The translations under genes and the position numbers were made by a program. The notes beneath the pieces were generated by a model. It searched no databases and was not told where the DNA came from. It saw only the letters and a list, made by a program, of their open reading frames with translations. Of a DNA stretch of 64,000 nt, positions 20,448 through 54,165 are shown one piece after another (position 1 is the stretch's first letter; every line of letters begins with the position of its first letter). This DNA comes from Rhynchobatus australiae (Eukaryota): NCBI GenBank assembly GCA_034780895.1, contig JAUZTB010000042.1:10610975-10674974 (forward strand), written 5' to 3'.

Positions 20448-20489
20448 GTCTCCCCATGCCACACACCATTCCCCGGCCAAAAGGGCAAG
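20448..20489 (+). CDS. ATXN7L1: Candidate 42-nt alternative cassette (micro)exon of ATXN7L1, phase 1/1, encoding (G)LPMPHTIPRPKGQ(E)
   Basis: Long polypyrimidine tract ttttttttcttctccccctctttttag, branch-like ccctcac at about 20402-20408, donor CAAG|gtaggt. Length is a multiple of 3, there is no stop codon, and the phase equals that of the 31317 acceptor. No transcript evidence. Confidence 0.6.
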
Positions 20490-31539: not shown

Positions 31540-34500
31540 GTGAGTACTTATAGTTTGATTACATTTATCAGGATGGTCTTTTGGTTATTGCTTTTAAAAA
31601 GGAGATCATTAAAATTATATTTCTCAATTTTGTTCACCTAAGGTATAATGGATTTTTCAGAGCACTCTTAACAGTTTTACTATTAGTTTGAAACCATCCT
31701 CAGTAATTTGTTGAAATGCTGAACGAGCAAGTGCAGTTTGAATCTGTTATGAATCACATAGTAGCTTGATTTAAAAAAAAGCTTTGTGAATAGGCTGTCC
31801 TTAAGCTGAAGAAATGATGCTTAAATTGACTCTATTTACATAAGTTCATAAAGATTTTTTTTATTGCAAAAGGAAAGTTAATCTATTTTTCCATAATTGC
31901 CTTTCTTTCACTTATATTTCCTGTTGCTAATTTGGAAGTGCAATGTACTGGAACATCTACTGAAAAAATCTGTCTTTGATGGAACTAAGTTTCTAGTTTT
32001 CATGAGATTAATTTGTTTAGAAGGGGAAATGGGCCAGTGTTGCTAATATTCAGAAGGTCTGTTTCTAAAGTACTTCAGAAACCCAGAACAGACTTGCCTA
32101 CCTTGAAATCCCTGTTATGCCAGCAAACTTAAAAAAAAGTGCTCCTCTTTATGTTGTGAGCAAGCCTGCAGCTCATCGTGGTGTGACAAAACCAACTTCC
32201 GAGTGTATTCGTGAAAGCCGCTTTAATATATTACCCTCTCCTCTGTTTTCCTAGTCTTACTTCAGAAGCTAACTCCATTTCTGGCTCTACAGAATCAGCT
32301 GCCCTTCAATTTCTCATCTGAGAACAATGTTTCACCTGTGAGGCTAGATAATGAGTATTGGCAGATGATCTGTAAGGAAAATTATCCAACAGAAGTCCCT
32401 GAATTGCAAAGCATCTTATCGTTGAAATGAATTACAGTTGCAATGTCATCAGTCCAGTATAAATAAGTACAACTCAGGCCTGCAGATTTCTTGGTTGTAA
32501 GGTCATCATAATGATTTTATTAACTCTACCACCTGCAATTAAAGTATTTTGCTAATTGAAGTGAACCCTTTTGCATCAATGCTTTTTTCCAAACAAGGAA
32601 TGGATACTGTTTTCCAGTCTATTTTGTCATGGTTTACTTTCATTAGTCGTTCATTGTTACCTCTGCGGGACATTGAGGCAGGAGAGTTCTTGTGGAATGC
32701 ACAACTGGAAACTTGAAAAAATTGGCCATCCAGCCTTGTAATTTGTTTTGGAAATGAAGGCGAATGTTGTCTGTGCTGCTGAGATATTTTTGTTCACAAT
32801 TCTGTAACACCAGATATAGTTCTGGCACTGATGCCTGCACAACATTTGCTGTGCAATCTATAAGTGTGGCAGTGTCATGTATTGTCATGGTTTGAAAATA
32901 CTGACTAAGTGAAATACTAAAATCAGGGGCACAGTAGGGCCGTGGTTAAGTTACTGGCCAGCAGTGGGTAATTTCTGCATCATTGATCCAGACACAGGTT
33001 CAAATCCCACTCTGATAACCTGGAATTTAAGTTGTGTTAAATAAATCTGGAATTTTAAATGTTACTGTCAGTATTGGAAACTCATCTCGTTCACTCATGC
33101 CCTTTCCCAATATGGTATATTATGACCTCAGACCTGCCNNNNNNNNNNCTTAACTCCCTCTGCCGAGGATTAGACTATAAATTCTGATATTCTATTGATA
33201 ACCATGTCTTATGATAAAGTGAATAAAATTGTTTTTTTCCATTTAAATTATTTGGGAATAAATACCTTTTTTTATGTATGTTTTTATTTGGGAATAATTT
33301 ATAAGTTAGGAGCTTTATTAAGCCATTTAGCTCTTAAAGCACATTCTAGTGTTCAGATCAGGATTGAACTGTATCCTAATTCTATTTAAGCACATTGGTT
33401 CGATAAGCTTAATTTAGTCATTAAGTCTATAAATCTTTGTTTCAGTTATGAAATCTTGAAATAAGTTAGCTCAGTTTTGGGAGAAGGGTTCTGAATTTCC
33501 ATCGCCTTTGCAGGGAGGGTGGGGGGAGGGGGGAATGGTTCCTGAATCCATCCCAAAATAGCACAGCTTTTTAGTCTCTCTTATCCTCATGTTCTCAGCT
33601 TCCCAACCTAGAGGACAAGAAACACTCTCAGCTGTGCCATTTTGCAGTGTTATCTTGAGGGACAATAATGTGCAAGGCTTTGAGTAATAAGGCTGATTAA
33701 TTAGATTGCTCTGTGAGGAACTAGCATTGGCTTGATGGACCAAGTGGCTTGCTTTTGTGCTGTAATAATTCTATGACCTTATTGAATCTCATAATCATCT
33801 ACCATTAGATTACCCCTCAATCTTCGATACTAGAGGAAATTCATTGATATTACAGAAAGAGTCTGATAATTGGCTATGTGATTGTTTGGAAATCCGTTTC
33901 GCATGCTCCCTTTGAACTCACTAGGGCTCTGTTTCCAATGGTCTCTTTAAACTCTTCTGGTTTGTTGGAAAATTTATTCTACTGTGTAACACCTTAAAGC
34001 AAAAAGTGTATTAAATGTGTGTAGGAGTATCAGTAGGGATAACATCCAATAGTCCAGAAAATCTGGCCAGTCCAGTACCACAAATCTTGAGGATGTAGGA
34101 TTATTGTTTTACTGTAGTTGTGGACAAATTATTGAAGCAAGTATTGTGATAACTAAAAATATGGGGAGACAAAACCAGACTATAGATGCAGAAATCTTAC
34201 AAGGTCAACAGAAGTGTGTATTTCTATTGTTAAATATCTGATTCAGTTTTTTTTTAAGTTCCAAAATAGCCTTCAGTGAAATGAACTTCTCAGTCATAAA
34301 CTCGGTAACTGAACATCCATCACCCTCTGAACAGAGAATGCCAAAGATTCATAACTTTGTGATTGAAACTCATCCCAGTCCTAAATGGCTGATATTGTGA
34401 TCCTTGGTGTCAACCAGCCCTCAGGAATTCTGTACATTTCAGTAAAGTCACCTTTCATTCTTTAACATGCAGAATAGAGATACATTCTCCTCAGTATGAA

Positions 34501-36909
34501 CTGAAGGAATCAATCCAACAAACCTTCATTGCAGCCTCAACTGCGGCTCCAAGCACAGTCTCACAAAATTCTATGTAATTGCAGCAAGATTTCCTTATTT
34601 CTTTTTTCCAAACTACTTGCAAAAATAACTGGTGTTTGATTTTCCTTTCTGTTTGCTGAACCTACATGTTAATTTTCTTTAACTAATGTCCAAGGGGCTT
34701 CAAATCCCTCTGTATACCGTGATTTACTAGTCCATCCCCTTTTTTATGAAAACAAGTATGCTTTGCTGTTCATCCAACCAAAGTAGACATGTTTGTATTT
34801 CCCCAGATGATAATTCCACTTGCTACCATTTTGCATAACTTGTCCCAATCCCTTCTTATTATTTATAAGATTCCCAGTTTAAATCTGCCATGAATTCTGT
34901 CCTTTGCTGTTTAACTTCAACATTCCAATGAAACCAGTGCATTTCTGGTTTCAAATTCAAATTACAGTGAGGCCAGTTTGAACCTGGTTTAAGATTGAAA
35001 TTACAATGACGCTGGATCATTTCCATTTTGAAATAGAAGAACTAGAATGGTACTTGCCATCATGTGCAATATTATTTACATGCCACTAAAGACCTGGAAA
35101 AGATTTTGTTTATTTCATATAAGAGATTCAAAGGCAGGTAAAGCTATTGAAGGATACAACTGAATGGCTTTGAAGTTAGGTTGATTTNNNNNNNNNNNNN
35201 NNNNNNNNNNNNNNNNNNNNNNNNNNNNNNNNNNNNNNNNNNNNNNNNNNNNNNNNNNNNNNNNNNNNNNNNNNNNNNNNNNNNNNNNNNNNNNNNNNNN
35301 NNNNNNNNNNNNNNNNNNNNNNNNNNNNNNNNNNNNNNNNNNNNNNNNNNNNNNNNNNNNNNNNNNNNNNNNNNNNNNNNNNNNNNNNNNNNNNNNNNNN
35401 NNNNNNNNNNNNNNNNNNNNNNNNNNNNNNNNNNNNNNNNNNNNNNNNNNNNNNNNNNGTAAAACAGGATTAGTGTAAATGGATGCTTGATGGTTGGTGC
35501 ACGGTCAGGCCGAAAGGTCTGTCTTTACATTGTATGATTCTGATTTTATGAAATTGAATCTTATTACAGCACAGGTATCTCCAGAGAGAGAGCAGCTCAT
35601 GAAGTGACAGCAGCTGTCCTATTTATCATTTATTCCTCATGACTGCTGAGGTTTCAACATGTATTCATATGCAGTCATCATGATCTTGTCAAATACAATC
35701 CACAGTATATATGGGATGAAAGTTAGCAAACTAAGAATGCTTCCACTGTTAGCAGATAAGGAATATGAATAGGTCAATAAATGTAATTTTCTTACTGGGT
35801 TCTATTATGGTTAAACACACTCCTGCAGCAAGATGGTGAATTGTCAGGCTTACTTACAGCTGCCATAAGTATGCTTTTGTGATTCCAGTCGGGTCTTTAT
35901 ACAGTAGGCTCATTTTTCCAGTTTTTTATTGACCCTAGCCTTGTTTGAGCTTGAGCCAGCAAAGCTCATAACATTTGGAGATCAGAATCAAATTCATACC
36001 CACCTCTTGCTCATCAAGGTAATGAATGCCTTACCTCTAGACAAAGTGCTCTAAATGATTGGTTAAATACCATTTGCCACTGGAATATTCATTGAATTCA
36101 GGACCTGTCTAAAACCCTGAGGACCTAAACAGTATACCAACTCATTGTCGTTGATTTTGTTTAATCGGTTTGTTAACATTTTACATTAATGTTTTGATGC
36201 TTCCTTTGATAATCTTCTGGGTATGCACTGACTGTTACAGACTCATGAAGAGCTCTATAATGCATTGACCTTCTCTAAATCTGTTCAATGCTCCGCATGT
36301 TTTCTAGATTGACAGAGAATCTCAATTTATGTCTATTCCATGAGAGAGGAGCAAGTAAAACATGATGTGGGGAAACAGTGAAAAAAATTCTTTTTCTGTC
36401 TTTCACTTTACATGAAGAAAATCATAATTTCTCTTTATTTTTTAAAGGTGTATCATCCTCTTTGTTCCCTTGTGGTCTCACTAGAACATGCTTCTCCTTC
36501 TGCTGCGGTCATAAGGAAGGATAGGTGAGCTGGTCCAACATCTCCACCTATACCATTCTTCAACTGGCTGTTCACAAGCATTGATAGCAGCCTATTGGCA
36601 ACTCCATCACTTTTTTTCTTTCAATCCACCCAACACTTATAGTGGGCTGTTTGGCTTCTACTTGATGCTTTGGCACAGCAGCACAACTGAGATTTGGAAG
36701 TCCAAAATATGGACAAAATTACCCTGCATTATCATGATATAGAATTACCAAGAAACTGTTACACATTCGACCCAATCAATCTGTGTTTGTACTGTACATA
36801 AGCAATAATAATCCCATATACTCACCTTGTTCTCATGTCTCTATATTCTCTCCTTCAACCAATTCTTTAACCAATGCTTAAATGTTGACGGGGTCTGTTT
36901 CAGTCACTG

Positions 36910-37410
36910 GAGAAATAAAGGACTGCAGATGCTGGAATCTAGATGAAAAACACAATGATGCTGGAGGACCTCAGCAGGCCATTCAGCATCCGTGGAGAAA
37001 AGTAGGTAGTCGGCGTTTCGGGTCAGGACCTTTCTTCCATGTTGGTCTTTCATGACCCAGCTAAGGAGAAATTTCATCACAGATGTCTGTGCATTTTGGA
37101 TTCTGAAGAAGGGTCCTGACCCGAAATGTTGACCGCCTGCTTTTCTCCACGGCTGCTGNNNNNNNNNNNNNNNNNNNNNNNNNNNNNNNNNNNNNNNNNN
37201 NNNNNNNNNNNNNNNNNNNNNNNNNNNNNNNNNNNNNNNNNNNNNNNNNNNNNNNNNNTCACTGCTCTGCTTTTCCCCTATATATTGGACTTCCCCTTTT
37301 CCTACTTTCATTCCTGAAGGGTCCTGACCCGAAATGTTGACCGCCTGCTTTTCTCCACGGATGCTGCCTGGCCTGCCGAGTTCCTCCAGCATCATCGTGT
37401 TTTTCATCTG
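36910..37410. mobile_element. Young Penelope-derived element with about 90-bp inverted terminal arms and hammerhead-like cores, inserted in a decayed CR1
   Basis: 36943-37030 is the reverse complement of 37320-37408. CTGAAGA-A-GGGT-CCTG-ACCC-GAAA-TG-TT at 37103-37130. Contains an N gap. Confidence 0.8.
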
Positions 37411-38044
37411 TTTCAATCACAATGGATTCCCTGTTCTTGCGATACTTTCATTGAAGTGGTTTCTCATGCTTTGGCCCAAATCCCATGCATTCAGTCTGGT
37501 ATATATGTCCCTCTGCTCTCTGCTACTCATTCCTCTATTTCTGTCAATTCCCCCTCTTATTTTAAACACTTATGAAATTCTTCAGTGGTAATTAAAACAG
37601 CCTTAATTTTTCCACGCCTTTCTTTTCATTAGTGGCAAGCAGCATCCAAGTGAATTTACCCGATGCCTTCCCTTGGCCTCGTACCTTTGCTGTCAAACAA
37701 AGCTCAAAATGTTGCACAATACTTCATCTTACAGAGATGTGGACAACTGCACATTAATTTTGTGTACTATACCTCTTGCCGTAAAACTCAGTGTTCTATT
37801 AGCAGATTATGACCATATCCACTTAAACTGCTGCTTTAATGTCTCATGAACCAGACCACCAAAATCATATTCTTTTCCACATCACCAGTTCTTTGTCATT
37901 CAAAGTACCAAAATTTATCGATTCACACTGAATTGACATTTGGCACTTTTTTGCTCATTCTCATTTCTGCCTCTGTACAGCTTATTTTGGTCCTCAAACT
38001 TATTTATAATGCCTGTTTTAGTTCCATTCAGAGGTTTGGTTAGG

Positions 38045-40260
38045 AACATAAGGAAAAGGACCAGAGGTAAGGCACTAAAACCTCGTATTTGCTCCACCTT
38101 TTGTTAAGATCATATCTGATTTTTCAGAACTCCCACCTTCCCCATTACCTCCACATCCACTGATCTCCTTAGTGTCTAAAACGCTATTGATCTGAGCCTT
38201 GAATATATTCAATGAGTTAAGATACACGGAGTAGAAAAATCCAAAAATGCACAGGCCTCTGTGATGAAATTTCTCCTTAGCTAGGTCATGAAAGACCAAC
38301 CCTTTATTGATTCTCGGACTGTCCTGATGTCAGTCCCCCAGCAAGGTGAAGCATCATCTCTGTCTCTACTCTTTCAAGCTCCTTAAAAAAAATTAAATGG
38401 AGGATATACTGTAGGCTTAGTCCACTCAATCACTCCTCATTGGACAATTTCTGCATCCTGGGAATTGGGCAAGTGAACCATGTTTGCGCTTTTAAGAAGA
38501 AGGGGGTATCTTGCGTTTGGTTAGTAGACCAGACTGCAACACAGTACTTTAGATGTAATCTCTCCATGGCCCTTTATAATTGCAGTCAGACTTACTTATG
38601 TATTGTTCCAACATTCCTGCTTCAAAGATGAACGTACTTTGTTTTTTCTAATCGCTTCCAGTGCCTGCCAACTTGCTTCGTTATATTTGAATATTTAGTT
38701 CTCTCTGGGTACCAATGTTTTCTCACCATTTTGGAATGGTGTCCTTTGCCACTTAAAAAAACAGATTTTGGTGTTCCCTACCAATCTTGACAAGTTCACA
38801 TTTCTGCACATTTATATTTCATATGTGGTGTTATTGCAGATTCACTTCAGCAGCCTGCATCTGCTTGCAGTCTGCATCTGCTTGCAGTCAGTTTGCAACC
38901 TTCTTGCCTTATTCCCTCACCCAGCTCCAGATTGCCAATAATCTTGGATGTATCACACTCAGCCCCTTCATTTATTGCTATTGACATAGATTGTAAATAC
39001 CTGGGTCTCAATGTGCAACTGTTCTGTGCTCTTTTAATAAAGTAGTGTTCAATCAATGCTAATGTATTATTCCAAGGCTGGGAGTCCATTTTTGTGTAAT
39101 AGCATTTTATGTGGTATCTTCGTGTAAAGTCAAAATACACTCCATCCACTGAGTTCCCTTTACTTTCCTTGCTGGTTACAACACCAAAACCCTTTTAACT
39201 AATTTGTCAAATATAATATTCTTTCATAAAACCTTGTGACCCTGTCCAACTCTTTTATAATTTACTAGGTGCCCTTTATCATGTTTTAATGAGACTCTGG
39301 TATTTTCTCTATTTCTTTTATCAAGCTGATCTGCCTGCAGTGGGTATACTGAAGTCTTTAGAATAATGGGAGATCAGAACCAGTTCCCCCCAGCTCTTTT
39401 TAAATCCAAGATTGTGGGTTATCAAGTCTAAGAAATTTCTCAGCTTTAGACTTTTGATTTGCTCAGTATTTCTACCTTACGGATAACAATTGTTTTTTTA
39501 TCCCTTATTCTAACTTTATCTTTGGTTTCATGCTACTTATAATTTTTTTGTATACTGCCACAAAGGTGATTGCAAAATTGATATTTTGATAGCTTTGCCA
39601 TTTCCTTGTACATCAGTGTAATATCTTGTGCTTCTGCCTTAAGGAGTCCATGTTCACTTTTACTAACCTCTTTCTACATCATTATGGATGATTTTACAAA
39701 GTGTTAACATGTCTCTTGATGATTTACTCTGAGTCTGTTCTCGCTCTTCCTTTCTGTCAATTTTGTGGCAACCTTTGGCTGAATTCTGAAATACTCCTAA
39801 TCCTCAATTTGGTAATATAAACCTCTTCCTTTTCGGTTGTCTCTAAATTAACTTGGTAGTTGCAGTTGGGTTACTTTTTCTGTGGGATGTTTAATTATTT
39901 AAATGTTTATTTGTGGCAAATTATTGTTTAGTTCTTAAAGTGTTTCCTTTGCTTTCCTGTCATTCTATCTATTAATCTCGTATTCTAATCTACTTTACTT
40001 GAATCTCACACCTATGCAATTTGTTTTGTAGAGATTTAAGATTATTTTCAGATTTAATTAAGTCAACCTCAAACTCAATATCAATCTATGAGTGCTCTTC
40101 TCCCTTTTATTGCACAATACTAGATGTAAAATGGTCTGTTCTTAACCTGGTTCTTTGAAATACACATAAAACTGTTTCCTCCAGACTATTATTTGCTTTG
40201 TGCAGTCCGTATGAAAGTTGAAGTGCTCCATGATTATTCTGTTATCCTTGTGGCAGGCAA
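38045..40260 (-). mobile_element. Long, heavily decayed CR1 LINE
   Basis: 3' end ggaacataaggaaaagg...gagccttgaatatattcaatga; RT remnant DGVYFDF in ORF 38847-39149(-). Confidence 0.7.
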
Positions 40261-40404
40261 GTCATGATCCTCACAACTGTGCAGTACTAATCAGTGCAGA
40301 CCAGAGTCCAGCAAAGCTATGTCGTTCCCCTGATCCTTGTTTCAATCTTTCTCGCCACAATTCTGCACCTTGTCTCCAACAAGTTTCCTGCTAGGGTGTT
40401 AAAA

Positions 40405-40628
40405 AATCAAAAAGCTGGGGAGGCTGCAAATCTTAAACAAAAGGAGAAAATGCTGGAAACGTTCAGCAAATCAGGCATCATCTTTAGAAGGAGAAACAGA
40501 GTGAATGTTACATCAGAGTTGATCAGTCCTGGTGAAGGGTTTTAGACCTGAAATGTTAACTCAGTTTTCCTTTCCACTGATGCTCCCTGACAAGCTGAGT
40601 ACTTCCAGCATTTTCTGTTGTATTCCAG
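40405..40628. mobile_element. Penelope-derived inverted-repeat (MITE-like) element
   Basis: gaaaatgctggaaacgttcagcaaatcaggcatc...gaaacagagtgaatgtt versus aatgttaactcagttttc...gatgctccctgacaagctgagtacttccagcattttc; decayed core ctggtga-agggttttagacct-gaaa-tgtt. Confidence 0.72.
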
Positions 40629-40662
40629 CTGGAGGAGAACTAATATACAATGGGAATAATAA

Positions 40663-40905
40663 GGGCGGCACGGTAGTGTAGCGGTTAGCGTTACACTATT
40701 ACAGCGCCAGCGATCAGGGTTCGATTCCCGACACTGTCTGTAAGGAGTTTGTACGTTCTCCCATGTCTGTGTGGTCTTCCTCCGGGTGCTCCGGTTTCCT
40801 CCCATGTTCCAAAGACATACGGGTAGGTTAACGTGGGTTTAAAAAAAAATGGGTGGCATGGACTCGTTGGGCCAGAAGGGCCTGTTACCAAGCTGTAAAT
40901 AAAAA
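40663..40905 (+). mobile_element. tRNA-derived HE1/V-type SINE (young) with Pol III A and B boxes
   Basis: A box TAGTGTAGCGG 40674-40684, B box GGTTCGATTCC 40718-40728, V-domain ccgggtgctccggtttcctccca, CR1-type tail gggccagaagggcctgtt. Confidence 0.92.
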
Positions 40906-41024
40906 ATTTTAAATTCAAATAATTTAAAAAAAATTTAAGGAATTCAAAATGTTCCACCCATGTTGCCTGTACTCTGAACCGAGGTCACCTGAACCTCAGT
41001 AGCTGAGCTGCAGTATGAAGGTGA

Positions 41025-41360
41025 TGTTTGCATTATGAAGGGCATAAGGTGAATGATCACAGTCATGTTCCCAGGGTAGGGGAGTCTAAAACAAGAGGGC
41101 ATTGATTTAAGGTGAGGGAGGAAAGACTTAAATGGGACATGAAGGGCAACTGTTACATACAGAGGGTGCTGGGTACGTGGAACAAGCTGCCAGAGGAAGC
41201 TGTAGAGGTGGGTACAATTATAGTGTTTAAAAGATATTTAGACTGAGAAACTTAGTGGGATGTGGACCAAATGCAAACAAGTGGGACCAGCTCAGGTGGA
41301 CAACTTGGTTGGCATGGATGAGTTGAGCCGAAGGGCCTGTTTTCCGTGCTGCATGACTTT
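41025..41360 (+). mobile_element. CR1/HER1-like LINE 3' end
   Basis: ttcccagggtaggggagtctaaaacaagagggcat...tggaacaagctgccagaggaag...ggatgagttgagccgaagggcctgtttccgtgctg. Confidence 0.85.
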
Positions 41361-41379
41361 AAGCACGTTTGGAGCTGAG

Positions 41380-42550
41380 CTCACTGACCTCGCACTCGAC
41401 TTCTGCGAAGGAAGTTCCTTTACCAACCTGTCCCCACTGCTACAACACTGCCGCCTGACTATAAAGGTTCACTGAGACCCTGGAGACCCACATCCCCGAT
41501 GTCAGGAGCCATCTCAGGAGGGTGGTGAAATTCACCCTTCCTTTCAAGGTGCCAAGACGGTCTTTTTGCCATCTGAGGATGAAGTCATCAATTCTGGCAC
41601 AAAAATCATGGTCCAGAGGGCAGCAGTGATCCCTCCAAGATGCTTCTGAAACGGGAACTAACTATATTTGGAATTTAAAGGCACAGAAGAGATAGCACCA
41701 TTGCTGTCTCAGCAGAATTCTCCAAATAAGCAAACCAATGAAAGGGTCAGTTCATAGTCCCAGCACTGAAGCCCTAAATGCCCTCAGTTTGCTCTATTCG
41801 CTGGTCACATTGTTTGCAAGCCCAACTAGACTCCCAAAATGGGCACTCTGTTCAGAGATTATCAACTAGACAGAGGAAAACAATGTAGTCAAAGCTTCTC
41901 AAAGAAATGCAATATCCCCACTGACTCCTGGGCAGACCTTGACCATGACCCCTCAGAGTAGAGAACGAGCACTTGGAATGGCACTGAGACCTTGAGCCTA
42001 TTCATCAGGAGCACACGGAAACCCAGAATAAATGCTAGAAGGAGTGTACCACCTCACAAAATGCCCACCCATCCAAGTAAGAGCGGCACAATGGTGCAGA
42101 TAGCAGAGCTGTTGCCTCACAGCTCCAGGCTCCTGATCTCCAGTGTTATCTGTGTGGAGTTTGCCTGATCCCTGTGACCACATGGGTTTCCCTGAATGCT
42201 CCAGTTTCCTCCCATATCCAAACAGTAAGTTGGTTGTCAGTTTAATTGGCCACTATGAATTGATCCTGGTGTGCAGGTGAGTACTAGAACATGCAGGGGA
42301 AGGGGGGGCTGGGGGGTGCGATTGATGAAAGCCTAGGGAGAATAAGATAGGATTAATGTGAATGGGTACATGATGGCCAGAGTGGACTTGGTAGGCTGAA
42401 GACCCTGTTTCTGTCCTCTATGACTCTGAATACCTCCTGCCCATCTCTTATGGGTTCTGCAGGTCCCACTTCACCTCCTCATTCAAACCAGAAGCCACAG
42501 AATTGGAGTGGAACCAAGACATCCTCAATTTGAAGGACTGTCTAAGATTA
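41380..42550 (+). mobile_element. Decayed RTE-like LINE 3' region, interrupted by a SINE at 42084-42425
   Basis: ggcacaaaaatcatggtccagagggcagcagtgatccc...gactcccaaaatgggcactctgttc...cccactgactcctggg...ggagtgtacc, resuming after the SINE with cctcctgcccatc...ggagtggaaccaagacatcctcaa. Confidence 0.55.
42084..42425 (+). mobile_element. Older HE1-like SINE
   Basis: gcggcacaatggtgcagatagcagagctgttgcctcacagctccagg...ctgtgtggagtttg...tgctccagtttcctcccatatcca...ggctgaagaccctgtttc. Confidence 0.8.
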
Positions 42551-42559
42551 CTCTTATTA

Positions 42560-44030
42560 CGCACACCTCAAATGTTATACTTTGCCCTACACTACAATTG
42601 TTAGAGTGGTTTATAACCTACCCTCACCAATGTTTTCAGCCAATGCTTCATCATAGCCCCACCCTTTCTGATACTAGATCTTAATTTTCCAAGTTTCGTC
42701 GTCTTTTCTATGGCCTTTATCCCATCTTTATTATTAGGGGTACCACTTGTATCCTAACTCTCCTTTTCCATTTTGACTACCTATTTTAAAAGTCAAGTAT
42801 TCCAGAATATTCAGTTCTTACTTATGGCCACTCTCCAACTACATCTCAATGACAGCTAATAGGTCAATCCATTCATTTCTATTTTTGCTGTCCTGTCATC
42901 TATTTTGATGTAATTGTTTTGTCTACTTGAAATTAATACCTCTTTCTAGTTTTTTTTATGATGCCAGCTTAGTCACTGTGGTGTTAAGGTCAATGTCCCT
43001 TCTTGAACCAATCTACTTATTTTTATCCATATCAGTGCTCAACCACCTTGACATTTTTCTTGCTGCTTCTGAATATTGCCTTTCCTTGGTCCTTCTCCCA
43101 ACTCTCTCCCTCCCCAGCTAGTTTAAAGTCCTGTCAGTTGTCAAAGTTGGCTAATTCACCAGAACACTTGTCCCAGTCCAGTTTCAGTAGCACGTATCCC
43201 AGTAGTAGAGCTCGTTCCTCCCCCAGTACTGATGTCTTTATTCTATGAATCAAAACCCTTGTTTCCTGCATCATTCTCTCAGACACATTTATCCTTGGAA
43301 TCTGTTATTCAAAGCAAATTGACACGTGGCTTGGGTTACAATACGGGGATTAAATCATGCAGTCATCTGTGGTTTAATGTTAACCATAACTCCTTAAAAC
43401 TCTGTTCAGCAGAAATTCATTCCTGGTTCAACTTCTATCATGGACNNNNNNNNCTGGAACCTCCCCATCACATCTCTTCAGTCATGAGGATCTGTCATTA
43501 ATATTGTGAACCTTTGGCTGCAGAGAATAGTATTTTTCCTTTTGACTGTCCTGCCTTGTAACAAGAAAATTCTTCTGCTCTCTTACCACTTGAATCTCTT
43601 CCTGTATCATTGGGCTGTGATAAATTTTGTCACCATCCTCTCGACTTTACTTTCATTCACATAGACAAAAAGGATCCTATACTTGTTGGTAAAGAGCAAA
43701 TGTTGAGGCTCTTCAAGCACTTCACCAGGGGCATCCCTACCTGGCTAGCTCACAATCATGCCCCTTGACCGCACATCCAGTCTGTTTCACAACCTGACCT
43801 GCTTCCTGGTTTAAGGTTTCTTGATAACTACATTTTTCTGGTGTCTTTGACCTTTCTGCACTTTAGACACCTGCCCATTAACTAAGTCTCAGGGTTCCTC
43901 AAGTTGCAGACATTTACTGCATTTGTGTGTCTTCTGGGATTGTGGTCCAAACCATAAAATTCCACATGCTACAATTGTGACACATCACCTGCACTGATAT
44001 CCCTTTCATCCCTTATTTTGTTTATTTAGT
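42560..44030 (-). mobile_element. Decayed CR1 5'/ORF1-endonuclease region
   Basis: ccctccccagctagtttaaag...cacttgtcccagtccagtttcag...cctcccccagtactgatg, typical reverse-strand CR1 ORF1 (esterase-like) sequence; similar to 61400-62090. Confidence 0.55.
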
Positions 44031-44139
44031 CAATATATTTCATCAACAATCTTTTTAAGATTAATTACTCATCTAGTTCAAGTGGGTGACTCATTCACAT
44101 ATTGATGTAATTTCCACCTCCCCTCCATGAGATTTGATA

Positions 44140-44600
44140 TGCAGGTTCGAATGGGTTCTGTTTTACAGAATTTGTCCATAAGTTGGAAAATGCACAAAAT
44201 CACTTGGTACGGTAATTATACCTCCTCAATATTGTAATGAATGGTATCAATAAGAGCATTTAACATGAACATTTATTTATCGTCTTCCCTTTCCTAGTTA
44301 GAGCGCTGCAGAATCAGGATGGCCCATGTTACATTGTTTAATAAGGGTATCATTGTGCAAGAAGTAATAGAAGTGATTGCTTGTCAATTACCAAATCAAC
44401 TCCTTAAGTGGCCTCCCACAGTGAAACTGGAAGCCCGTGTTCTTAAGAGAGAATGGTGTCTGATTACTGGGGAGGTTACATGTAAACAGGGTTTTTTTTT
44501 GCAATACGGCTTCTTGTTTGAACTTAGTAATATTTATGGGAGCTCATTCGTATGTACAAGGTGTCCATAAGTCAGGCATGCATAATCTGAGGAGGTCTAT
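44140..44600. mobile_element. Possible Tc1/mariner-pogo-type non-autonomous DNA element
   Basis: Repeated sub-terminal gtccataagt motifs at about 44174 and 44563 and a Tigger-like end cataatctgaggagg; termini degraded. Confidence 0.3.
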
Positions 44601-47600
44601 AATTTTTTTTCCCGTGCTGCTGACAGACCTGCAGCAGCTCACTGCTATGTTCCCTTTATAAACTGATGCTGGTCAGTATTCATTTTTGTTAAGTCAATGT
44701 AAGAAATTTGCAAGCTAGTTGTTTTCAGATTTATAGCAAGGAAATTCTGTGACCATGAATTTATTAAATATTCAAATGAGCTGTTAATAATTATAAGAAA
44801 ATAATATATATTTTGGAGGGCTACATCTCCCTTTGGTCCAATGTCCAAATCATTCATGTATACTGAAATGAAAGCAATTCTAGAATCAAACCTTGTAAGA
44901 CATAGCTCTCTCTTTCCAGCCATTCAAAGTCTGTTCTTGACTCATGTTTACTGCATCATTCTTTCTGATTAGAACTCAATTATTTTCTGTATTTTCTTGC
45001 CCCCTGATGCTCAGGAGTGGTTTATGTGGTAAACTGTAAAAAGGATTTCCAGGATTTCACATGCATCACATTATCAATGTTCCCCTCTCTTTAACCATAT
45101 CCTTCACTGACTCAAAGACTTCAGTCTCCTTCAGTGCTTATCTCTGATCCTCAGGTGTTCCTTGGCCCTAATCTAGCACCTATCTTCCCAGAACTTTTCA
45201 TGTCTACCAGCTACCAGCCCCACTGACCCAAGGGATCCAATCTGTCCAGATTGACTGAAATGTGCAGAGAAGAGCTCACTAGTGTAACATTCATTAGTGT
45301 CCTGCTGCAATGCTAGATTGGTACACCCAATTGGGTGCAGTAGGTTTTCAAGGCTGTGCATGGATACTATCTGACTTCTAAGTCGATGACTACAATAATA
45401 GATTTCTAGTTTCAATAGTCCCCTTATTTCCCCCTAATTTCCTTCAGGAACCTTGGATTTATCCAGTGATCAGAGTTTATCCTTTAATTAACCTTTACCT
45501 CTAACAATCCTGTCCTCTCTGAATCGTGTGTGACATACATTATTTTTCTAATTTAGGATATGCTTTTTACATTCAAATAAAGTATTGTTTTGAGATTTTG
45601 TACTCGTAGTCTGTCCCTGCTTTTCCTCTCCCTTAATCTGTTCTTTTTCCATATTATTTTTCCATATTCTTTCTTCATATTATTCCTCCTCAAGTACAGT
45701 CTTTTACTATACATGGAATTCTGAAAGCTGTTTTTTTAAACAGAGAAGTAATTTGCAATTTTCTAATCTTTGTTTTGGAAGTAAATGTTCTTTTGTTGAT
45801 CTGCAACCCTGTGCAGCAATGTCATACAACACCTCACCTAGTCATCCTTAAAATTTGCCCTCTTTCAGTCTAATGTCCTTGACATTTTGCATTTAAACAT
45901 CGTTAAATGCTGACAAAGTGCTCGCCCATGTTTAATTGTCTGGTCAAATTTCATCAGATCCGGATCTGGCGATGCCTTTCTACAGGTGTGTAATGATACT
46001 AAGGAAGGAGTTCTGCATACGTTTTAGGAATTCCAATGCATTACCTCCCTGTCATGATCAATGAATGGATAATTGCAGTCTTCTAGAACTGTAATATTGT
46101 TATTCCTCCTCATTTTATCGGCAGTCAGTCAGGATTGAACAAGGCTGGTGCTGCTTCCTAAAGGACTTAACTGGGGACATCAAAAAATGAAAAAGTTTGA
46201 GATGATAGGCATTAAGAAGATGTTTGGATTTATGGCGTATCCAAAAGTCGGGGTCATGAATCACTCCCAGAATGATTAGAATGTGGAATTCACTGCCACT
46301 TGAAATGGTTGAGGTGAAGAGCAAAGTCATTTTTGTGGAAGCTAGGCCAACAGATGAGGAAGAATTCAGTGTATGGGTGTGCTGAAAGGATAAGTTGAGG
46401 TAGAATGGTAGCATTATCACCAGTGTGGGCCAAATAACCCATTTCTGTGCTGTAAGTTCTTCCATCTGAGAATGCAGATTTTCTTGGCCATTTCCCTTCC
46501 ACAGTTTAGGACTCTGCAGTACAACCTCACTAATGAAACAGTACCTTTTTTATAAAACATCTGACTGACCGTATTAACTCTGTATTCTTGTTGTTATCCA
46601 CACAATTTCTCTCTGCTGCGTGTATTTCCTCCTTGATATTGACACTACCCTTATCCTGTTCTGTCTTTACTGCTGTCCAGTTTGCAGCCAAGCTTCAGCT
46701 GTTGATTCTACATTTTCCTGTGTTGTCATTTGCATCGTAGTTTATTTCCCACACCCCAGCGCAGTACAATATATGCATTTTTTTTCTTTGTCGTGCACAT
46801 ATTAATGTCACTCCTTTACATTCAAACTTTCTGTGATCCTGTTTGAAAGTTCTCCACCGGCTTCATTTCCAAATCATCAAATTATTTTGCTCCATTGTAA
46901 ATCTGTGACAGACTTATTGATCATATAATGGACATGTCTTTGGCAAACTTGTCAGAGGGAAGATGTTTTCTCTGTTAACGGCATATGAAACAATCACTTG
47001 ATATACTGTGCATCTTCAACAATAGTGGAGCATATTGTTCAATAAATTTCTTATTGGGAGTATAGTTTTGTATTGACTGTAGAAAAGGACCTTTCAAGTC
47101 ACTTAGTTGGAGGAATGGATTGCACTGCCATTGATAAGTGCCAGTCCTTTCATTTAAAATGGCTGAAATAACTAGAGAGGAAATTTTATCTGTGGTGAGA
47201 TTTAAACACCTTTCCAAAATGGAAATCCCAGAACTGTAACAGTAACATTAACAAATCCCTTCAGTATTCTGATGCTTGTAATTTTCCCTTGCAGAACAAT
47301 TGACAAGAAACACTGTAGCAGTTTTTAGTAGCATGTTACAGTCACAGGGGAATCAAGGATGTACTACAAAATAAACAAAACACGCAATGGATTTTGTCAC
47401 ATGATTAAAAGAATATCAGCCAGTTTAGATGTCAGCCTAGAACAGAGGATAGCTGCCACTTTGAACTACTCAGCACCAGATTATAGAATTTCTGCTTAAT
47501 CTCAAACCCATTAACTCTCTGACAACATTCAAGGCACAACTTGGTAAGTGCTTGTATTTATTCCTGTCTTCTGAGTGAAAACTCAAAGTCACTGCAGCAA

Positions 47601-48347
47601 GTATAATTTATCTTTCATGCACCACAATATGAGGGATGTTATTTAAATGGATTTATATATGTAAGTTAGTAATTGATTCAGTTTCCCCATATTCATTATT
47701 TTGGTAATGAAATGAGTGATTCCACTAATGCTGGACTTCCTAACAACATGAGCATTTTTTTTGTTGTCAATGGCTGTTGGATTACATCCAAAGAAAGGAA
47801 TGAAGCATGTTTTAGCTAACTTGAGTACTAGTTAAATGTGGACACTCAGTACATATGCAGTTGCCACCCAGACGGACAGCACTCATGCCGACCATGCCAC
47901 TTGCATTGGGTACCAGCTCCTTGTGGGTACTGCTCTGTGGGGAAACAATGACAATAGTGGAGTTCCGAGAGACACTTGTTTGAAGCCCCAAACATTTGGA
48001 AGCCAGAAGGAATAGTGAATTTCTATAGACCCAGCAGCATGTTTGACAGAAATTGTCCATAGGTTAAAGCAAAAGGGAAGGGAAATCAACCAAGATTTAG
48101 CTATGACTCAATAACACTGCAGTTAATCATGTAGATGGGAATACTTTAGCCATGGTGCCAGTTACACTTAGTTGTACGTATTCATGGAATGTATCATTGG
48201 CTTCTCTTTTTTTTCATCTAGTATGATGAGTAAACTTCATTTAAGACTGCCTTGTCAAGCATAGATCAATTGTAGTGGCAGCTCTGATCTCTTTTTCCTA
48301 GACCCTTGTTTCATTTCAGGTGTTTCCGTTCTGTCAGGTTTCCACCA

Positions 48348-48992
48348 TTAAGAAGACGTATGGTGTGTTGGCCTTCATTAGTTGGGATATTAAGTTCAAG
48401 AGCCACGAGGTGATGTTGCAGCTCTATAGAACTCTGGTTCGAACACACTTGGAGTATTGTATCCACTTCTGGTTGCCTCATTATAGAAAAGATGTGGCAG
48501 CTTTAGAGAGGGTGTAGAGGAGATTTACCAGGATGTTACCTGGATTGGAGAGCATGTCTTATGAGGATAGGCTGAGTGAGTTAGGGCTTTTGTCTTTGGA
48601 GAGGAGGAGGATGAGAGGCGACTTGATAGGGGTGTACCAGATAATAAGAGGCATAGATCAAGTGGACAGTCAGAGACATTTTCCCAGGGTGACCGTGGCT
48701 AACACAAGGGGACATAATTTTAAGGTGATTGGAGGAAGATATAAGGGGAATGTCAGGGGTAAGTTCTTTACACAGAGAGTGGTAGGTGCATGCAACGCAC
48801 TGCCAGTAAAGGTTGTGGGGGCAGGTACATTAGGGACATTTAGGAGACACTTGGATATACACATGAATGATACAGAAATAGGGGGCTATGTGGGAGGGAA
48901 GGGTTAGATAGACCTTAGAGCAGGATAAAATGTCAGCACAATATTGTGGGCCGAAGGGCCTGTAACTGTGCTGAAATGTTCAATGTTCTAAC
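48348..48992 (+). mobile_element. Well-preserved 5'-truncated CR1/HER1-like LINE (ORF2 C-terminus plus 3' UTR)
   Basis: YGVLAFIS..IKFKSHEVMLQLYRTLVRTHLEYCIHFWLPHYRKDVAALERV*RRFTRMLPGLESMSYEDRLSELGLLSLERRRMRGDLIGVYQIIRG...FFTQRVVGACNALP with one in-frame stop; tail gtgggccgaagggcctgt...aatgttcaatgttcta. Confidence 0.93.
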
Positions 48993-49249
48993 ACCTCACT
49001 TTTGGAGAAACCTCCTTGCATATGTTTAATTTGCTTCAGCCTTCCAGTTCTTACTAATCTGCCAAGGAATCCGAGATGAAAGAGAAAGCTCTAAATCAAG
49101 CACCCGAATAAACAGAGCCCTGCTTTTGTAGCTGGCTGGATGTAGGGATCAACCTGGGTATTTGGTCCTATATTGAGGTTCTTTGTTCCTTAGCTGGGGC
49201 CATCAGATTCATTTTAAGAATAGGATTAACTGATATATGTTTTGTAGAT

Positions 49250-49410
49250 TCACAGAATAATGTAGCACAGAAAAAGGCCCTTCGGCCCAACTTATCCATA
49301 CTGACAAAGATGCCTATCTACGCTAATCCCATTTGCCTGCCTTTGGCCAAAATTCGTCTAAACCTTTCCAATCCATGAACCTGTCCAAATGTCTTTTCAA
49401 TATTGTAATT
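49250..49410 (-). mobile_element. CR1 3' tail fragment
   Basis: gcacagaaaaaggcccttcggcccaacttatccat...aatcccatttgcctgc...cctgtccaaatgtctttt. Confidence 0.85.
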
Positions 49411-49509
49411 GTATTGTAAGGATGATGTCTTTGTGTACTTCACTAATAGATGCAGAGCACCTACTGCTCCTGCTCTTGAATGTGCACCATTGATTTTGGT
49501 CAATAGTAC

Positions 49510-49770
49510 ACAGATCACTTCAGTCTCCAACAGCAGCAAAACTTCCTAAAGTCCCTCACTGCAACATTACCAAAATCAAAATTGACATCAAGCCATGAAA
49601 GAAATTAAGCCAGACCAGAAGTCTGATCAGATAGATGAGTTTTAAGGAGTGTTTTAAAGAAGGAAAAGGAGGCAGCAATGCAGAGATATTTAAGTAGAGA
49701 ATTGCAGCGGTTGGGGCCTTGACAACTGAGGCACAACAGTCAACAGTAGAAAGATTAAAATTGGAGACAA
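49510..49770 (-). mobile_element. Decayed L2-like LINE 3' end
   Basis: ttttaaggagtgttttaaagaaggaaaaggagg...agagaattgcagcggttggggccttgacaactgaggcac; similar to 28690-28930. Confidence 0.5.
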
Positions 49771-50482
49771 GAACTCAGGAGGGCAGGATGGGGTGACATA
49801 GACACCAAATTAAAATCATGATGTAGTGACTTGTGCTAAATTTTCAAAAGAAAAGTTTTTAGGCCATTTTGTGATCTTGTTTTGTTTCAGTGTGCAATTT
49901 TTGTTTTGTGTTAACCCATTGGTATACCTGCTCATGATCATTTTTGAGAGAGGAAATATTATGAAAAGTGTTAAATTGAAATAATCTGGTTATGGCAAAG
50001 GATGGATTGAATTAAATTTGAACAATATGTGACATGGCAAAATTAGGTTGTGCTAATTTGCATATCAACAGATTTTAAAAAATAAGGAACAAGGGGGGAA
50101 ATACTTATTTTTAAAAGCTTTGAATTTTTGGCATCTTGGTTCTGTTGATCAGCAAATTTGCTAAACTTCAGAAATATTTTATAATATTTCTTATGATGTT
50201 CAGTGTGAACATTAGAATACACNNNNNNNNNNNNNNNNNNNNNNNNNNNNNNNNNNNNNNNNNNNNNNNNNNNNNNNNNNNNNNNNNNNNNNNNNNNNNN
50301 NNNNNNNNNNNNNNNNNNNNNNTAATATTTCTTATGATGTTCAGGGTGAACATTAGAATACACAGCATGATTGTTACAATTGGCTTTCTGGGCAGTTATT
50401 ACTCGACCACCTTTACCTGGACTTATCTAGGTTAAGATAACCAAACAGTCTAGGGCCTTAAACGCCTCAGTAAGGTTGCCAA

Positions 50483-50630
50483 GGCACAAGAGACTGCTGA
50501 TGCTGGGATTTGGAGCAACATACAATCTGCTGGAGGAACTCATCAGGTCGAGCAGCATCTGGGGAGGTGGGAAGGAATTGACAATCAACCCACTGAATTC
50601 CTCTGGGAGATTGTTTATTGCCTCAGTAGG
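50483..50630. mobile_element. Penelope-derived terminal remnant
   Basis: caagagactgctgatgctgggatttggagcaacatacaatctgctggaggaactcatcaggtcgagcagcatctg parallels 36920-36990. Confidence 0.6.
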
Positions 50631-52759
50631 ATACCCTCTCAGGTTTGGTCTTACCTTTGTCGTAAATGAATGGTCTATAAATTCTCTCTCAATCGTTTTG
50701 GCAGAGCAATCAACTTGGTTTGATTAAGATATTGCTCAGGAAGAGGCTTTCTTTCCAAAACTAACCTAGAATCAAATTGCCAGAGAGTCACAGAAGTATA
50801 TTTTTCAACCTACATTATATAAACTATCACTTGCAAATCTAATCAGAGCTCAGTTTTTCTAAGTATATCTTTAAACGTTAATATTTTGTGTTACATCCTG
50901 TATTTTCTTCATGGTGAGAGTGCATAGGAAGTTCTTTGTCAGAAGTGTTGATGAATATAAAGTTGAAGAAAATATTGAACAAATTTGTGTTTTGCTTCCT
51001 ATAGGATACCTTTGGGGTATTAAGCACAAATAATGGCAAAGCTGAGGGGCACATCTAGTTCTGTGGACTAAATAACCTATTTCTGTGCAGTATATTCTTT
51101 AATATTTTCAGAAACTGCCACCTGCTTTGCTAAAATAAATAAAATAAATCCAGTTCTTAAAATATTTTTTAAAATTTCTGTTTCATTGATCACATAATAT
51201 GCTGTGTTCACTAATTTAAAGGATGCTTGAGTTAGTCAGTCACTTGCATTGAATTCCAATGAAAGTTACCTTGTATTTAAAAGAAGCCAAACTTATTTGT
51301 TGGTGATTTCATGCAAGGAATTCCAAACTAGCATTAAATTGGCAACTTTATTAAAAGTTTCTTAATGGACATCAGTTTTCAGAATTTACATAAAGCAGAA
51401 GACAGAAGGGTGTAAGTCCTCTAACACTTGGATTGGCCTGTCCACCTGTTCAGTATTTGTTTTAAGTTCTGGAAGTTCAAGAGTTAAGTATACAGTGGTT
51501 GCTGCTCAATCAGTGGATTCTTCAGCTGTTATGGATCCAAAATTACATCAAAAAGTTGGACCAACTTTCTTGTCGTCATTGTCCTTAGTCAGTCACCATT
51601 GCTGCCAAAACATTATTAGTTCCTACTTGATTAAATGAGTTTATAAATTATTTATCAGCTCACGATTAGCAGATTATTATCCATTAGCTCTAACTTATCA
51701 CTCTGTTGAAAATATGAAATGTGTATCAATCAGATGCATCATGTCTTTTATAAACTTGACAAAATTGTGCTCTCATAGCAAGCAAATCTCCTGNNNNNNN
51801 NNNNNNNNNNNNNNNNNNNNNNNNNNNNNNNNNNNNNNNNNNNNNNNNNNNNNNNNNNNNNNNNNNNNNNNNNNNNNNNNNNNNNNNNNNNNNAGCAAAT
51901 CTCCTGTGGTGTTGCTTATGATAAATATTAATGACCTGACTGTCATATCATGTAATGTGATATGATAACTCTTCATTAGCAGCAGAGTTGTGTTTAAAAC
52001 TAGAAACCCTCCAATTGCTAATAGTCAACACTATCTGGAGTCGCAAAATATTTTCACTATTTGTCAAATACTGCTGCTGATTTGCATGTACTTGGCAGTT
52101 TGAGGCTATACAAAGAACTACCAAGCATCTCCAGATAGGTTTGTCTCCTTAACTAGGTCTAACTTCTGGAATTATTAAATGCAGAAAAACATGTAACATC
52201 TTTAACGTGTTAATTCATAAATCTCCTAACCTGCTGCACAAAATGGGTTAGATTTTGTAATCAGTGGCTTGGCAGCAATCTTTTGGAGCAAAGCAAATTG
52301 CTTCCCCCACCTCCCTCACACCCATCACCACCACTACCAAGATCATCTCTCTCAACAAAATTAGTGGAATGAAATTTGAACTTTGGATAAAAGGGGGGGG
52401 GGGGGGGTGATTTGCCCTGCCAATTTATGAGGGAATGAAGTTCCGTTCTGCCCATTTACTACCAAGGCACTGAAGATCAAACTCTACTCTGGTATATCAA
52501 AGAAGATATTACGCCAAGGCTTTTGTGTTGTTTGTTTCCTTTGTTCTACTCAGGATTGCTTTTCCTCCTCACTTGTATAGTGTGTGTGGTGTCAGCTATA
52601 GATCACTGAGGACATAAAAATCCCATGACTGGTTTCTGCGCAACACATGGATGGGTCACTTGCTCCAGATGGCATGTCTCTTGGGTTGATGGAGGAAGCC
52701 ATGCTGGGGATGGCAGGAGGCCTAAGACGTGGGAGAGATGACAGAATTAGTGAGTGGCA

Positions 52760-54165
52760 AATGTTCAAGAAAGGGTTTAAGAAAGTTCCATCTCATTCAA
52801 GGCCAGTCAGTTTAGCATCAGTGATAGGTAAGGTTTTAGTAATAATCAGGGAAAAAATACAGGCATTTNNNNNNNNNNNNNNNNNNCTAATTGAATTTTC
52901 TGATCAAGTAATGAGAGGTATGTGGTTGTTTTTCAGACTGGGGAGTAGGAGACAGTGGTCTTTCTTGAGGGTCGGTACTGGGACCATTGCTTTTTTTTGA
53001 TTAAATATAAATGACCTAGACATTGGAATAAAGAGTAAAAATTCATAAGTTCTCCATGATGCCAAACTTGGAGTTGTGGCATTCAGTGGGGATGATCCCA
53101 CTTGACTGTGGCAGGACTTGTGCAAGCAGATTGGGCAGACAGTGGTCAGATGGAATTTATTGCAGAGAAGCAGAGGGACGGGGGGAGAAAAAAAGTCGAT
53201 GACAGTTCTAAAGAGTGTGCTACAACTGAGGGATGTGAGGGTTCATTTGAATGTATCTTTGAAGTTGATAGCCATGTTGAGAGAGTGTTAGCAAAATATT
53301 TGGGATCGTGGGCTTTATAAGTTGAAGTAAATTGTGTACAGAAGCAGGGAGGTTTTGTCAAACCTTTGTCAAACTCTGGTAAAGCTGCAGCTGGGGCATT
53401 GTGTCCATTTCTGGTCACCACAGTTTGGTGGATGTGCTGGTCATTGAGAACAAGAGTTGAGCTAACAGAATGGTTCCAGGGATGAGGGATTTTACTACAA
53501 GGGTACGTTGGAAAAACTGTGGTTGTTCTCCTTGAATTAAAGGAGGCTGAAGGGAAGTTTTATACACGTGTGCAACATTATGACAGGTTTAGAAATTTCA
53601 GCGTTATGACAGGGTGGCACAGTAGCATAGTGGTTAGCGCAACGCTATTACAGCACCAGCGACCTGGGTTCAATTCCTGCCGCTGTCTGTAAGGAGTTTA
53701 TACGTTCTCCCGTGTCTGTGTGGGTTTCCTCCGGGTGCTCCGGTTTCCCCCCACATTCCAAAGATGTACGGGTAGGTTAATATGGGTTTTAAAATGGGCG
53801 GTGCGGACTCGTTGGGCCGGAAGGACCTGTTACCACACTGTAAATAATTTTTTTTAAATTTAAAATTTAGAAATGCTGCTTCTATTAGCTGATGCTACAA
53901 TGACAAGGGGTTGTATATTTAAGGTCCAGGGCAAGAGACACAGCATTGTGAGGAAGAACTTTTTTTTAGAAATCTACAATTTGCTGCCTATGAGGATGGT
54001 AGAAACCGAGAATTTTAAAAAAAATTTAAGAAGTAGAAAATGAGAAAGAAATTGAATAGGCATTGGAGAGAAATAAACTGGCAGGGTTGGGGGACAGAAC
54101 AGGGAATGGGACCGAGTGCCAGCATGAATTTGATGGGCCCAATAACGTCATCTGTACTGAAGTAA
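52760..54165 (+). mobile_element. Decayed CR1 LINE (RT to 3' end) with a nested young SINE
   Basis: FKKG...SRPVSLASVIGKVL..IIREKI...LIEFSDQV, then INDLD..KF..DAKLG remnants, and 3' tail agcatgaatttgatgggccc. Confidence 0.78.
53612..53850 (+). mobile_element. tRNA-derived HE1/V-type SINE (young) with intact Pol III boxes
   Basis: A box TAGCATAGTGG 53623-53633, B box GGTTCAATTCC 53667-53677, V-domain, CR1-type tail; flanked by TTTAGAAAT direct repeats (53588 and 53866). Confidence 0.92.

Follow-up and report, generated by a model that had tools for sequence, protein, structure and literature searches.

Does a stretch of Rhynchobatus australiae DNA that reads like a minimal hammerhead ribozyme still specify a ribozyme, and what kind of element brought it there? 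The question was raised by an earlier note, made from the sequence alone, on the 64,000-nt piece of contig JAUZTB010000042.1 that is called the window here and to which all positions refer. The note described a minimal hammerhead-like core in a Penelope-derived element, sense to a host pre-mRNA. The analysis favors, with a probability of roughly 0.8, the reading that the motif is a decayed minimal type I hammerhead within a short dispersed repeat, that this repeat is likely the terminal fragment of a Penelope-like element (PLE), and that the copy at this locus is predicted not to self-cleave.

Results

The motif lies in the sense orientation in an atxn7l1 intron

The exon at 56222-56514 (+) belongs to ataxin-7-like protein 1, with Pristis pectinata as the best match (100% over the stretch searched), and the exon at 31317-31539 (+) is 97% identical (72/74 residues). 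These two exons are consecutive in named elasmobranch isoforms and enclose the 24.7-kb intron that carries the insertion (Table 1). Since the gene is on the + strand, the motif is sense to the atxn7l1 pre-mRNA, as had been proposed; the elasmobranch origin suggested for the family agrees with the matches of the host exons to elasmobranch atxn7l1. A small in-frame exon at 20448-20489 (42 nt) is an alternative exon present in several elasmobranch isoforms. No other atxn7l1 exon maps within the window and therefore all repeat copies would be intronic. An exon-like AG...GT stretch near 36449-36525 was absent from the 21 named isoforms tested.

The core agrees in part with the published descriptor

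The motif was compared with the published descriptor of minimal hammerheads (Cervera and De la Pena; PMC4209133, Fig. S7). The descriptor consists of CUGANGA with an optional extra nucleotide before stem II, a stem II of 3-7 bp with a loop of 3-10 nt, G10.1-C11.1, GAAA-NN-UH, and a stem I of at least 3 bp; a further mark of the class is a palindromic 15.2/16.2 for helix III of the dimer. Every letter described in the earlier note was found, in the same order and at the same positions: CUGAAGA at 37103-37109, A at 37110, stem II at 37111-37122 (4 bp, 4-nt loop, G10.1-C11.1), GAAA at 37123-37126, UG and UU at 37127-37130, and then GA. The triplet is GUU, and cleavage would occur after 37130. The repeat copy that holds this core (copy 1) agrees with the descriptor in the CUGANGA box and the extra nucleotide, in stem II, its loop and G10.1-C11.1, and in GAAA-NN-UH. 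It is the sole descriptor core in the 64-kb window on either strand. The extra A had been listed as a defect; 54/56 motifs listed in PMC4209133 have a nucleotide between 9 and 10.1, which is thus conserved in these ribozymes (counts over the 56 motifs were made by hand). Stem I of copy 1 has 2 bp (U-G and U-A), made with host DNA, and falls short of the 3-bp minimum. Among the 56 listed motifs a 2-bp stem I occurs in six, with G-C pairs in all of them (PMC4209133).

Taken alone, the motif exceeds chance only slightly. When the window was shuffled 300 times with dinucleotide composition preserved, at least one core was present in 12.3% of the shuffles if stem I was not required, in 2.3% with a stem I of at least 2 bp and in 0.7% with at least 3 bp. 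Rfam gave 0 matches on the whole window at the gathering score, and no hammerhead family matched 36800-37600 at E values up to 10. Weak Rfam matches to Ocean-VII and MIR1515 were discarded, their scores being far under the respective cut-offs; the latter arises from the inverted repeat. With a core in 12.3% of the shuffles and no Rfam match, a single motif is thus weak by itself, and it is the family context that makes the hammerhead motif credible.

The motif is part of a composite insertion

Copy 1 is one component of a single block at 36908-37409, in which copy 2 (-), a filler, copy 1 (+), a 100-N gap, a pyrimidine-rich stretch and copy 3 (+) follow one another inside a target-site duplication (TSD). 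The features are collected in Table 1. The TSD core is identical at 13/14 positions; an equal score was reached by 2/5000 random pairs and by 0/5000 in the anchored test. The tail of copy 2 is present in other long family copies as well, and is missing from copy 3.

Table 1. Coordinates of the motif, the surrounding insertion and the host intron (positions in the window)
Feature	Position	Strand	Remarks
atxn7l1 intron with the insertion, 24.7 kb	31540..56221	+	GT at 31540, AG at 56220-56221
Left target-site duplication	36894..36911	+	14-nt core 36894-36907; 18/20 columns match 37407-37426
3' tail of copy 2, ~30 nt	36908..36940	-	copy 2/copy 3 alignment stops at 36941/37409
Copy 2, inverted	36941..37039	-	antisense in pre-mRNA; 82/94 nt identical to copy 3
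Filler, captured host DNA, 62 nt	37041..37102	-	inverted duplicate of 38238-38300; 93.7% over 63 columns
Minimal type I hammerhead core	37103..37130	+	descriptor scan
Copy 1	37103..37158	+	begins at C3 of the core, ends at assembly gap
Assembly gap between direct copies	37159..37258	.	100 N, not a measured length
Pyrimidine-rich stretch upstream of copy 3, 51 nt	37259..37309	+	80% pyrimidine in last 25 nt
Copy 3, direct	37310..37409	+	3-nt core deletion; own stem I strand half decayed; no tail
Right target-site duplication	37407..37426	+	overlaps last 3 nt of copy 3
Host source of filler	38238..38300	+	1.15 kb downstream

Both neighboring copies were as the earlier note had them. The inverted copy keeps GAAACG and is without CUGA; it has also lost U16.1 (it reads GAAACG-CC) and therefore offers no NUH triplet. 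The copy seen at 37314 lacks three nucleotides of the core.

The filler reaches the last base before CUGA and supplies a non-cognate 5' strand for stem I of copy 1. The stem I of about 2 bp that had been remarked upon was found, and its shortness is due to a 5' strand made of captured host DNA; at the level of the family, stem I has 4 bp. The filler differs from its host source at 4/63 columns and so is probably old and no library chimera; on this ground, a fresh chimera was rejected as its origin. The source of the filler is contained in a region (38040-38500) that, together with 48518-48907, we take to resemble decayed CR1/L2 LINE ends; Pfam gave no match in either.

The 51-nt pyrimidine-rich stretch has no homology to the sequence upstream of other family copies. 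In several copies (13696-13700, 7642-7646 and 37309-37313), the 5' strand of stem I has a pyrimidine tract and then AG. An intron of Penelope in D. virilis is also reported to end at the 5' strand of stem I (PMC4209133).

Copies 1 and 3 are identical at 50/51 nt downstream of the 3-nt deletion, and agree with each other against copy 2 at 7 states in 51 nt, including TG at 15.2/16.2. A single insertion followed by independent decay leaves these shared states unaccounted for; different templates, later duplication or conversion, or assembly duplication are possible sources. Duplicated flanks lie flush at 5/7 of the 100-N gaps in the window (at 1860, 12018, 50223, 51794 and 62927; 13-82 nt). Such flush duplications are an assembler overlap artefact, which could mimic tandem repeats. 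At the 37159 gap the duplication is instead offset by 57 nt, and a flush-overlap artefact was rejected as a complete account of copy 1.

The majority sequence of older copies reads as a complete minimal hammerhead

Profiles built from the copies in the window gave 15-16 matches and none in the reversed window; 13 were recovered with a sequence-only model. The ribozyme region is kept in 11 copies. A majority sequence was derived from six older copies, leaving out three young ones and two with core deletions. It reads CUGAUGA-A and GAAA-NN-UU, matching CUGANGA and GAAANNUH, an agreement that is partly by construction since the copies were anchored on the CUGANGA box. Stem I, which was not used for anchoring, pairs in 4/4 Watson-Crick columns (U-A, U-A, G-C, A-U), with the fifth column unpaired. 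The older-copy majority is thus a complete minimal hammerhead, and the older subfamily from which it comes is only 40-62% identical to copy 1. The hammerhead ancestry of the family, anticipated in the earlier note, was supported in this form by the six older window copies.

Hand-anchored stem I cells were paired in 23/32 cases over 8 copies (copies 1 and 2 and one with a deleted strand were left out). Sliding the 3' strand by 1-4 columns gave 3-16/32 paired cells, except for 22/32 at -4. Between old and young copies, the first stem I pair varies between U-A and C-G, and 10.1-11.1 between A-U and G-C; these compensatory-looking changes are single events and do not demonstrate covariation. On an automatic alignment (A1), 47% of the cells were paired, which is under the shuffles (483/500 as high); an additional base in the stem II loop of the older copies puts them one column out of register there.

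The dinucleotide at 15.2/16.2 in the 11 copies is CG in 2, TG in 5, CA in 1, TA in 2 and GG in 1. This spectrum is that of CpG decay and supports an ancestral ACGU palindrome, as had been suggested from the inverted copy. Both core boxes are intact in copy 1 only (1/11), and a complete hammerhead is found in 0/11 copies. Core columns match the majority at 65/82 cells (79%) vs 131/164 (80%) for downstream columns. There is no sign of selection on the core after insertion, and it decays like neutral DNA. The family lies sense to the gene in 10 cases and antisense in 6, so that sense copies show no depletion, the numbers being small. These figures lend no support to the idea that intact intronic copies could cut host pre-mRNA.

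Copies share a uniform start and a two-step 3' end

The sequence common to all 11 core-bearing copies begins at the 5' strand of stem I. Upstream of stem I, 0/55 copy pairs were similar at p<0.01 (5 at p<0.05); downstream, 31 and 40 of the 55 pairs were similar. The 3' ends are bimodal, at profile positions 99-106 in six copies and 128-136 in six others, and a single copy ends at 114; three fragments were left out of this count. Four head-to-head pairs are found near 10.2, 14.0, 37.1 and 40.5 kb, and in 4/4 of these the full tail is present in only one member; no TSD was found for the three older pairs. Among the junction partners of these pairs, 7/8 begin within about 7 nt of C3. The starts do not track the cleavage site (1/16 matches begins near it), so that self-cleaved monomers are unlikely to have served as templates. 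No tandem array with complete units was found in the window.

Host capture at insertion is seen a second time at 9988-10123 / 10324-10474, where ~115-150 nt of host DNA, duplicated in inverted orientation, lie on either side of an old head-to-head pair. At 3336-3490, two decayed copies stand head to tail, ~95 nt apart, and are joined at the foot of stem I. An additional repeat of ~250 nt, A/T-rich at one end and resembling a tRNA at its head, occurs in four copies that are 77-89% alike (2688-2936, 16739-17002, 40652-40930 and 53611-53873). It is probably a tRNA-derived SINE; ARAGORN found no tRNA.

Copy 1 is predicted to be unable to self-cleave

The verdicts on cleavage rest on secondary-structure predictions. 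The predicted probability of stem II is 0.04 for copy 1 alone, 0.01 with the filler and 0.00 with copy 2 in the transcript, the last owing to a long hairpin between copies 2 and 1. That hairpin is predicted at -114 kcal/mol (z -12.8); for the duplexes of copy 2, the values are -96 (copy 1) and -164.5 (copy 3). Folding predicts no cleavage by the dimer route. Copies 1 and 3 carry U-G at the palindrome, where C-G survives in 2/11 copies, and the forced 4-bp self-duplex gives +2.6 kcal/mol for AUGU vs -1.7 kcal/mol for ACGU. A forced double hammerhead of copies 1 and 3 gives 0.0 vs an MFE of -34.0 kcal/mol; of its two cuts, one would depend on the broken core of copy 3 and the other on the 2-bp stem that comes from host DNA. 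Copy 1 is thus predicted to be unable to self-cleave. The earlier suspicion that it may be inactive was well placed, judging from the descriptor, the decayed palindrome, the broken partners and the sequestering hairpin.

The inverted copies are predicted to pair at 36984-37037 / 37105-37158 and at 36941-37034 / 37316-37409. In the atxn7l1 pre-mRNA they are predicted to form 54-94 bp of dsRNA, a likely editing substrate. The likeliest effect on the host transcript would be such a double-stranded hairpin rather than a cut, with the copy itself a passive relic.

Two Pristis pectinata RefSeq models, P0121 (TEN1 isoform X3) and P0122, switch into the reading frame of the repeat at the same residue. 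A cryptic 3' splice site lying ~20 nt 3' of the cleavage site could account for the switch. An AG at this position is present in several older window copies and absent from the three copies at 37 kb. These predicted RefSeq models suggest exonization as a host effect of the repeat.

Discussion

Probable assignment to Penelope-like elements

The repeat is likely the terminal (pseudo-LTR, pLTR) fragment of a Penelope-like retroelement. The link is architectural, and is not a sequence match to a curated element or a linked ORF. Direct and inverted pLTR copies lie inside one TSD, an optional ~30-nt 3' tail is present at one end, and the hammerhead sits in the terminal repeat. Penelope insertions are described with two direct pLTRs and an inverted one, a TSD, an optional ~31-nt tail, head-to-head geometry and captured DNA (PMC3846280; PMC8557442; PMC11167929). 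An inverted, 5'-truncated copy beside direct pLTRs, with a 30-40-bp tail at one end, is reported as the insertion signature of these elements (PMC8557442; PMC3846280; PMC8969392). The tail is explained as the distance between two internal reverse transcriptase (RT) start sites (PMC11167929). PLEs have also been reported in whale shark introns (bioRxiv 443036). The Penelope derivation claimed earlier therefore stands as far as the architecture (TSD, tail, inverted and direct copies) is concerned and lacks a linked ORF. A Pfam scan of the ORFs of at least 55 codons near the copies found no RT or GIY-YIG remnant in 81/81, all in sequence outside the assembly gap, as expected for terminal fragments. 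Protein searches with the 46-codon open frame of the repeat found no Penelope protein; one such search gave four matches, two named sawfish models with the repeat spliced in and two unnamed low-complexity proteins, none with RT or GIY-YIG.

With the EN+ PLEs (Penelope/Poseidon, Neptune), as far as these are described, the locus shares head-to-head direct and inverted terminal copies, the optional ~30-nt tail, a TSD, captured host DNA and trouble in assembly. It differs in having no visible RT/GIY-YIG sequence, in a TSD of 14-20 nt vs the 8-10 bp cited for rotifer elements, and in the unusually uniform 5' ends of the ray family, which random 5' truncation does not predict.

A mechanism may be proposed along these lines. 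A Penelope RT/endonuclease would have inserted the block by target-primed reverse transcription with template jumps. The RT could start at either of two internal sites, which would explain why a copy does or does not carry the tail. If priming took place ~105-135 nt from the 5' end of the RNA, as in the anole element, immediate run-off would yield uniform short copies, and fold-back or template jumps would happen at the run-off boundary. According to the literature, such ribozymes work weakly in the RNA of the source element, and only as dimers through the ACGU palindrome or with the element protein. At the present locus stem I is without a cognate 5' strand, the palindrome now reads AUGU, both neighboring cores are broken, and the inverted copy 2 is predicted to pair with the whole core in the pre-mRNA.

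Alternative explanations

Run-off need not be invoked if the unit is itself a short element of 105/135 nt that is non-autonomous, has the ribozyme at its head and is mobilized by Penelope proteins in trans, retrozyme- or SINE-like, rather than a set of truncated full elements. We hold this possible but doubtful. It would fit the fact that the sequence common to the 11 core-bearing copies always begins at stem I, the closeness of 7/8 head-to-head partners to C3, the ~16 copies in 64 kb and the absence of an ORF remnant near them. A preprint (bioRxiv 10.64898/2026.07.22.740005) moreover reports non-LTR retrozymes in 1/1 chondrichthyan sampled and derives animal retrozymes from pLTRs. The retrozyme-like nature proposed in the earlier note was nevertheless not upheld. 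A retrozyme, as defined in the same preprint, comprises at least two consecutive complete units, whereas here 0/11 copies are complete and no tandem array is seen; the starts lie off the cleavage site, unlike those of self-cleaved monomers. The helix sizes are not those of the canonical type I fold with loop-loop contact (stem I has 4 bp at best, with no closing helix or loop 1 identified), and solitary motifs are given in PMC4209133 as the usual state of truncated PLEs. Copy 1 is dead under this reading as well. That copy 1 is partly a product of assembly, either copy 3 rendered a second time or a pair of haplotypes joined across the 100-N gap, seems unlikely. It does stop at the gap, it resembles copy 3 at 50/51 nt with both only 82-87% like copy 2, and duplicated flanks mark 5/7 of the gaps. 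Its duplication is however offset by 57 nt with a 3-nt indel and wholly different upstream contexts, the filler appears old, and a direct pair with an inverted copy is the textbook Penelope layout (PMC3846280).

A chance match inside an unrelated repeat would sit well with the frequency of such cores in shuffled windows (12%), with the silence of Rfam and with the poor pairing on the automatic alignment. We consider it very improbable, given that the divergent older subfamily yields the complete motif, including a 4-bp stem I unused for anchoring, and that the family comes with Penelope-type tails and inversions. Even less credence is given to copy 1 as an active ribozyme that cuts the atxn7l1 pre-mRNA, either as a monomer or together with copy 3. 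In favor of this reading, copy 1 has kept both core boxes, stem II and the GUU triplet, the motif is sense to the transcript, and an efficient engineered hammerhead placed in an intron can silence a gene (PMC12069562). Against this stand the departure from the descriptor and the folding predictions given above. Intact minimal hammerheads are reported to show no cleavage as monomers and low cleavage as dimers (PMC4209133), 8/9 Xenopus dimers were uncleaved and 1/9 cleaved (bioRxiv 10.64898/2026.07.22.740005), and the PLE ribozyme of the anole requires its protein for cleavage and is dispensable for insertion in vitro (PMC11167929). The reading of a decayed minimal hammerhead in a likely PLE terminal fragment is therefore retained.

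Relation to known hammerheads

The closest relatives are the minimal hammerheads of PLEs described in PMC4209133. The likeness extends to CUGANGA with one extra nucleotide, G10.1-C11.1, a short stem II and GAAA-N-N-U-H with no helix III loop, and further to the ancestral palindromic 15.2/16.2, a pyrimidine-rich 5' side, opposite-strand pairs and mostly solitary copies. Copy 1 differs in its U-G at 15.2/16.2, its non-cognate 2-bp stem I and the absence of a linked ORF; among the 41 listed motifs that lack loop 3, 29 have C-G and 0 have U-G at 15.2/16.2. In coelacanth and Xenopus, thousands of such copies, mostly solitary, are reported in the same source. Animal non-LTR retrozymes (PMC7229834; bioRxiv 10.64898/2026.07.22.740005) are likewise described as short, non-coding and pLTR-related, with a type I hammerhead and many dispersed monomers; the ray family differs from them in having no tandem run of complete units, a minimal rather than canonical ribozyme, and ends that do not track the cleavage site. 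Amniote intronic hammerheads of the RECK/HH9 type are also type I and sense in an intron (PMC6155905). They are described as canonical, conserved and single-copy, whereas the ray motif belongs to a repeat copy that decays neutrally, and Rfam gave no match to it.

A literature search found no description of the ray family, and a text search with a stretch of the repeat sequence returned 0 papers; Lunse et al. 2017 and the supplements of the 2026 preprint, which may name chondrichthyan families, were beyond the scope of the search. The kind of element is already known, and the finding is mildly new for batoids. A single copy matters little, since thousands of such relics per genome have already been described in fish, coelacanth and frogs. 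Its modest taxonomic value lies in the fact that rays and sharks are missing from the 2014 survey (PMC4209133), which lists 56 motifs of 40 species. Its mechanistic value lies in the start that the copies share at stem I and in their two classes of 3' end, which offer a handle on how the ends of Penelope RNA are set and on the role of the ribozyme.
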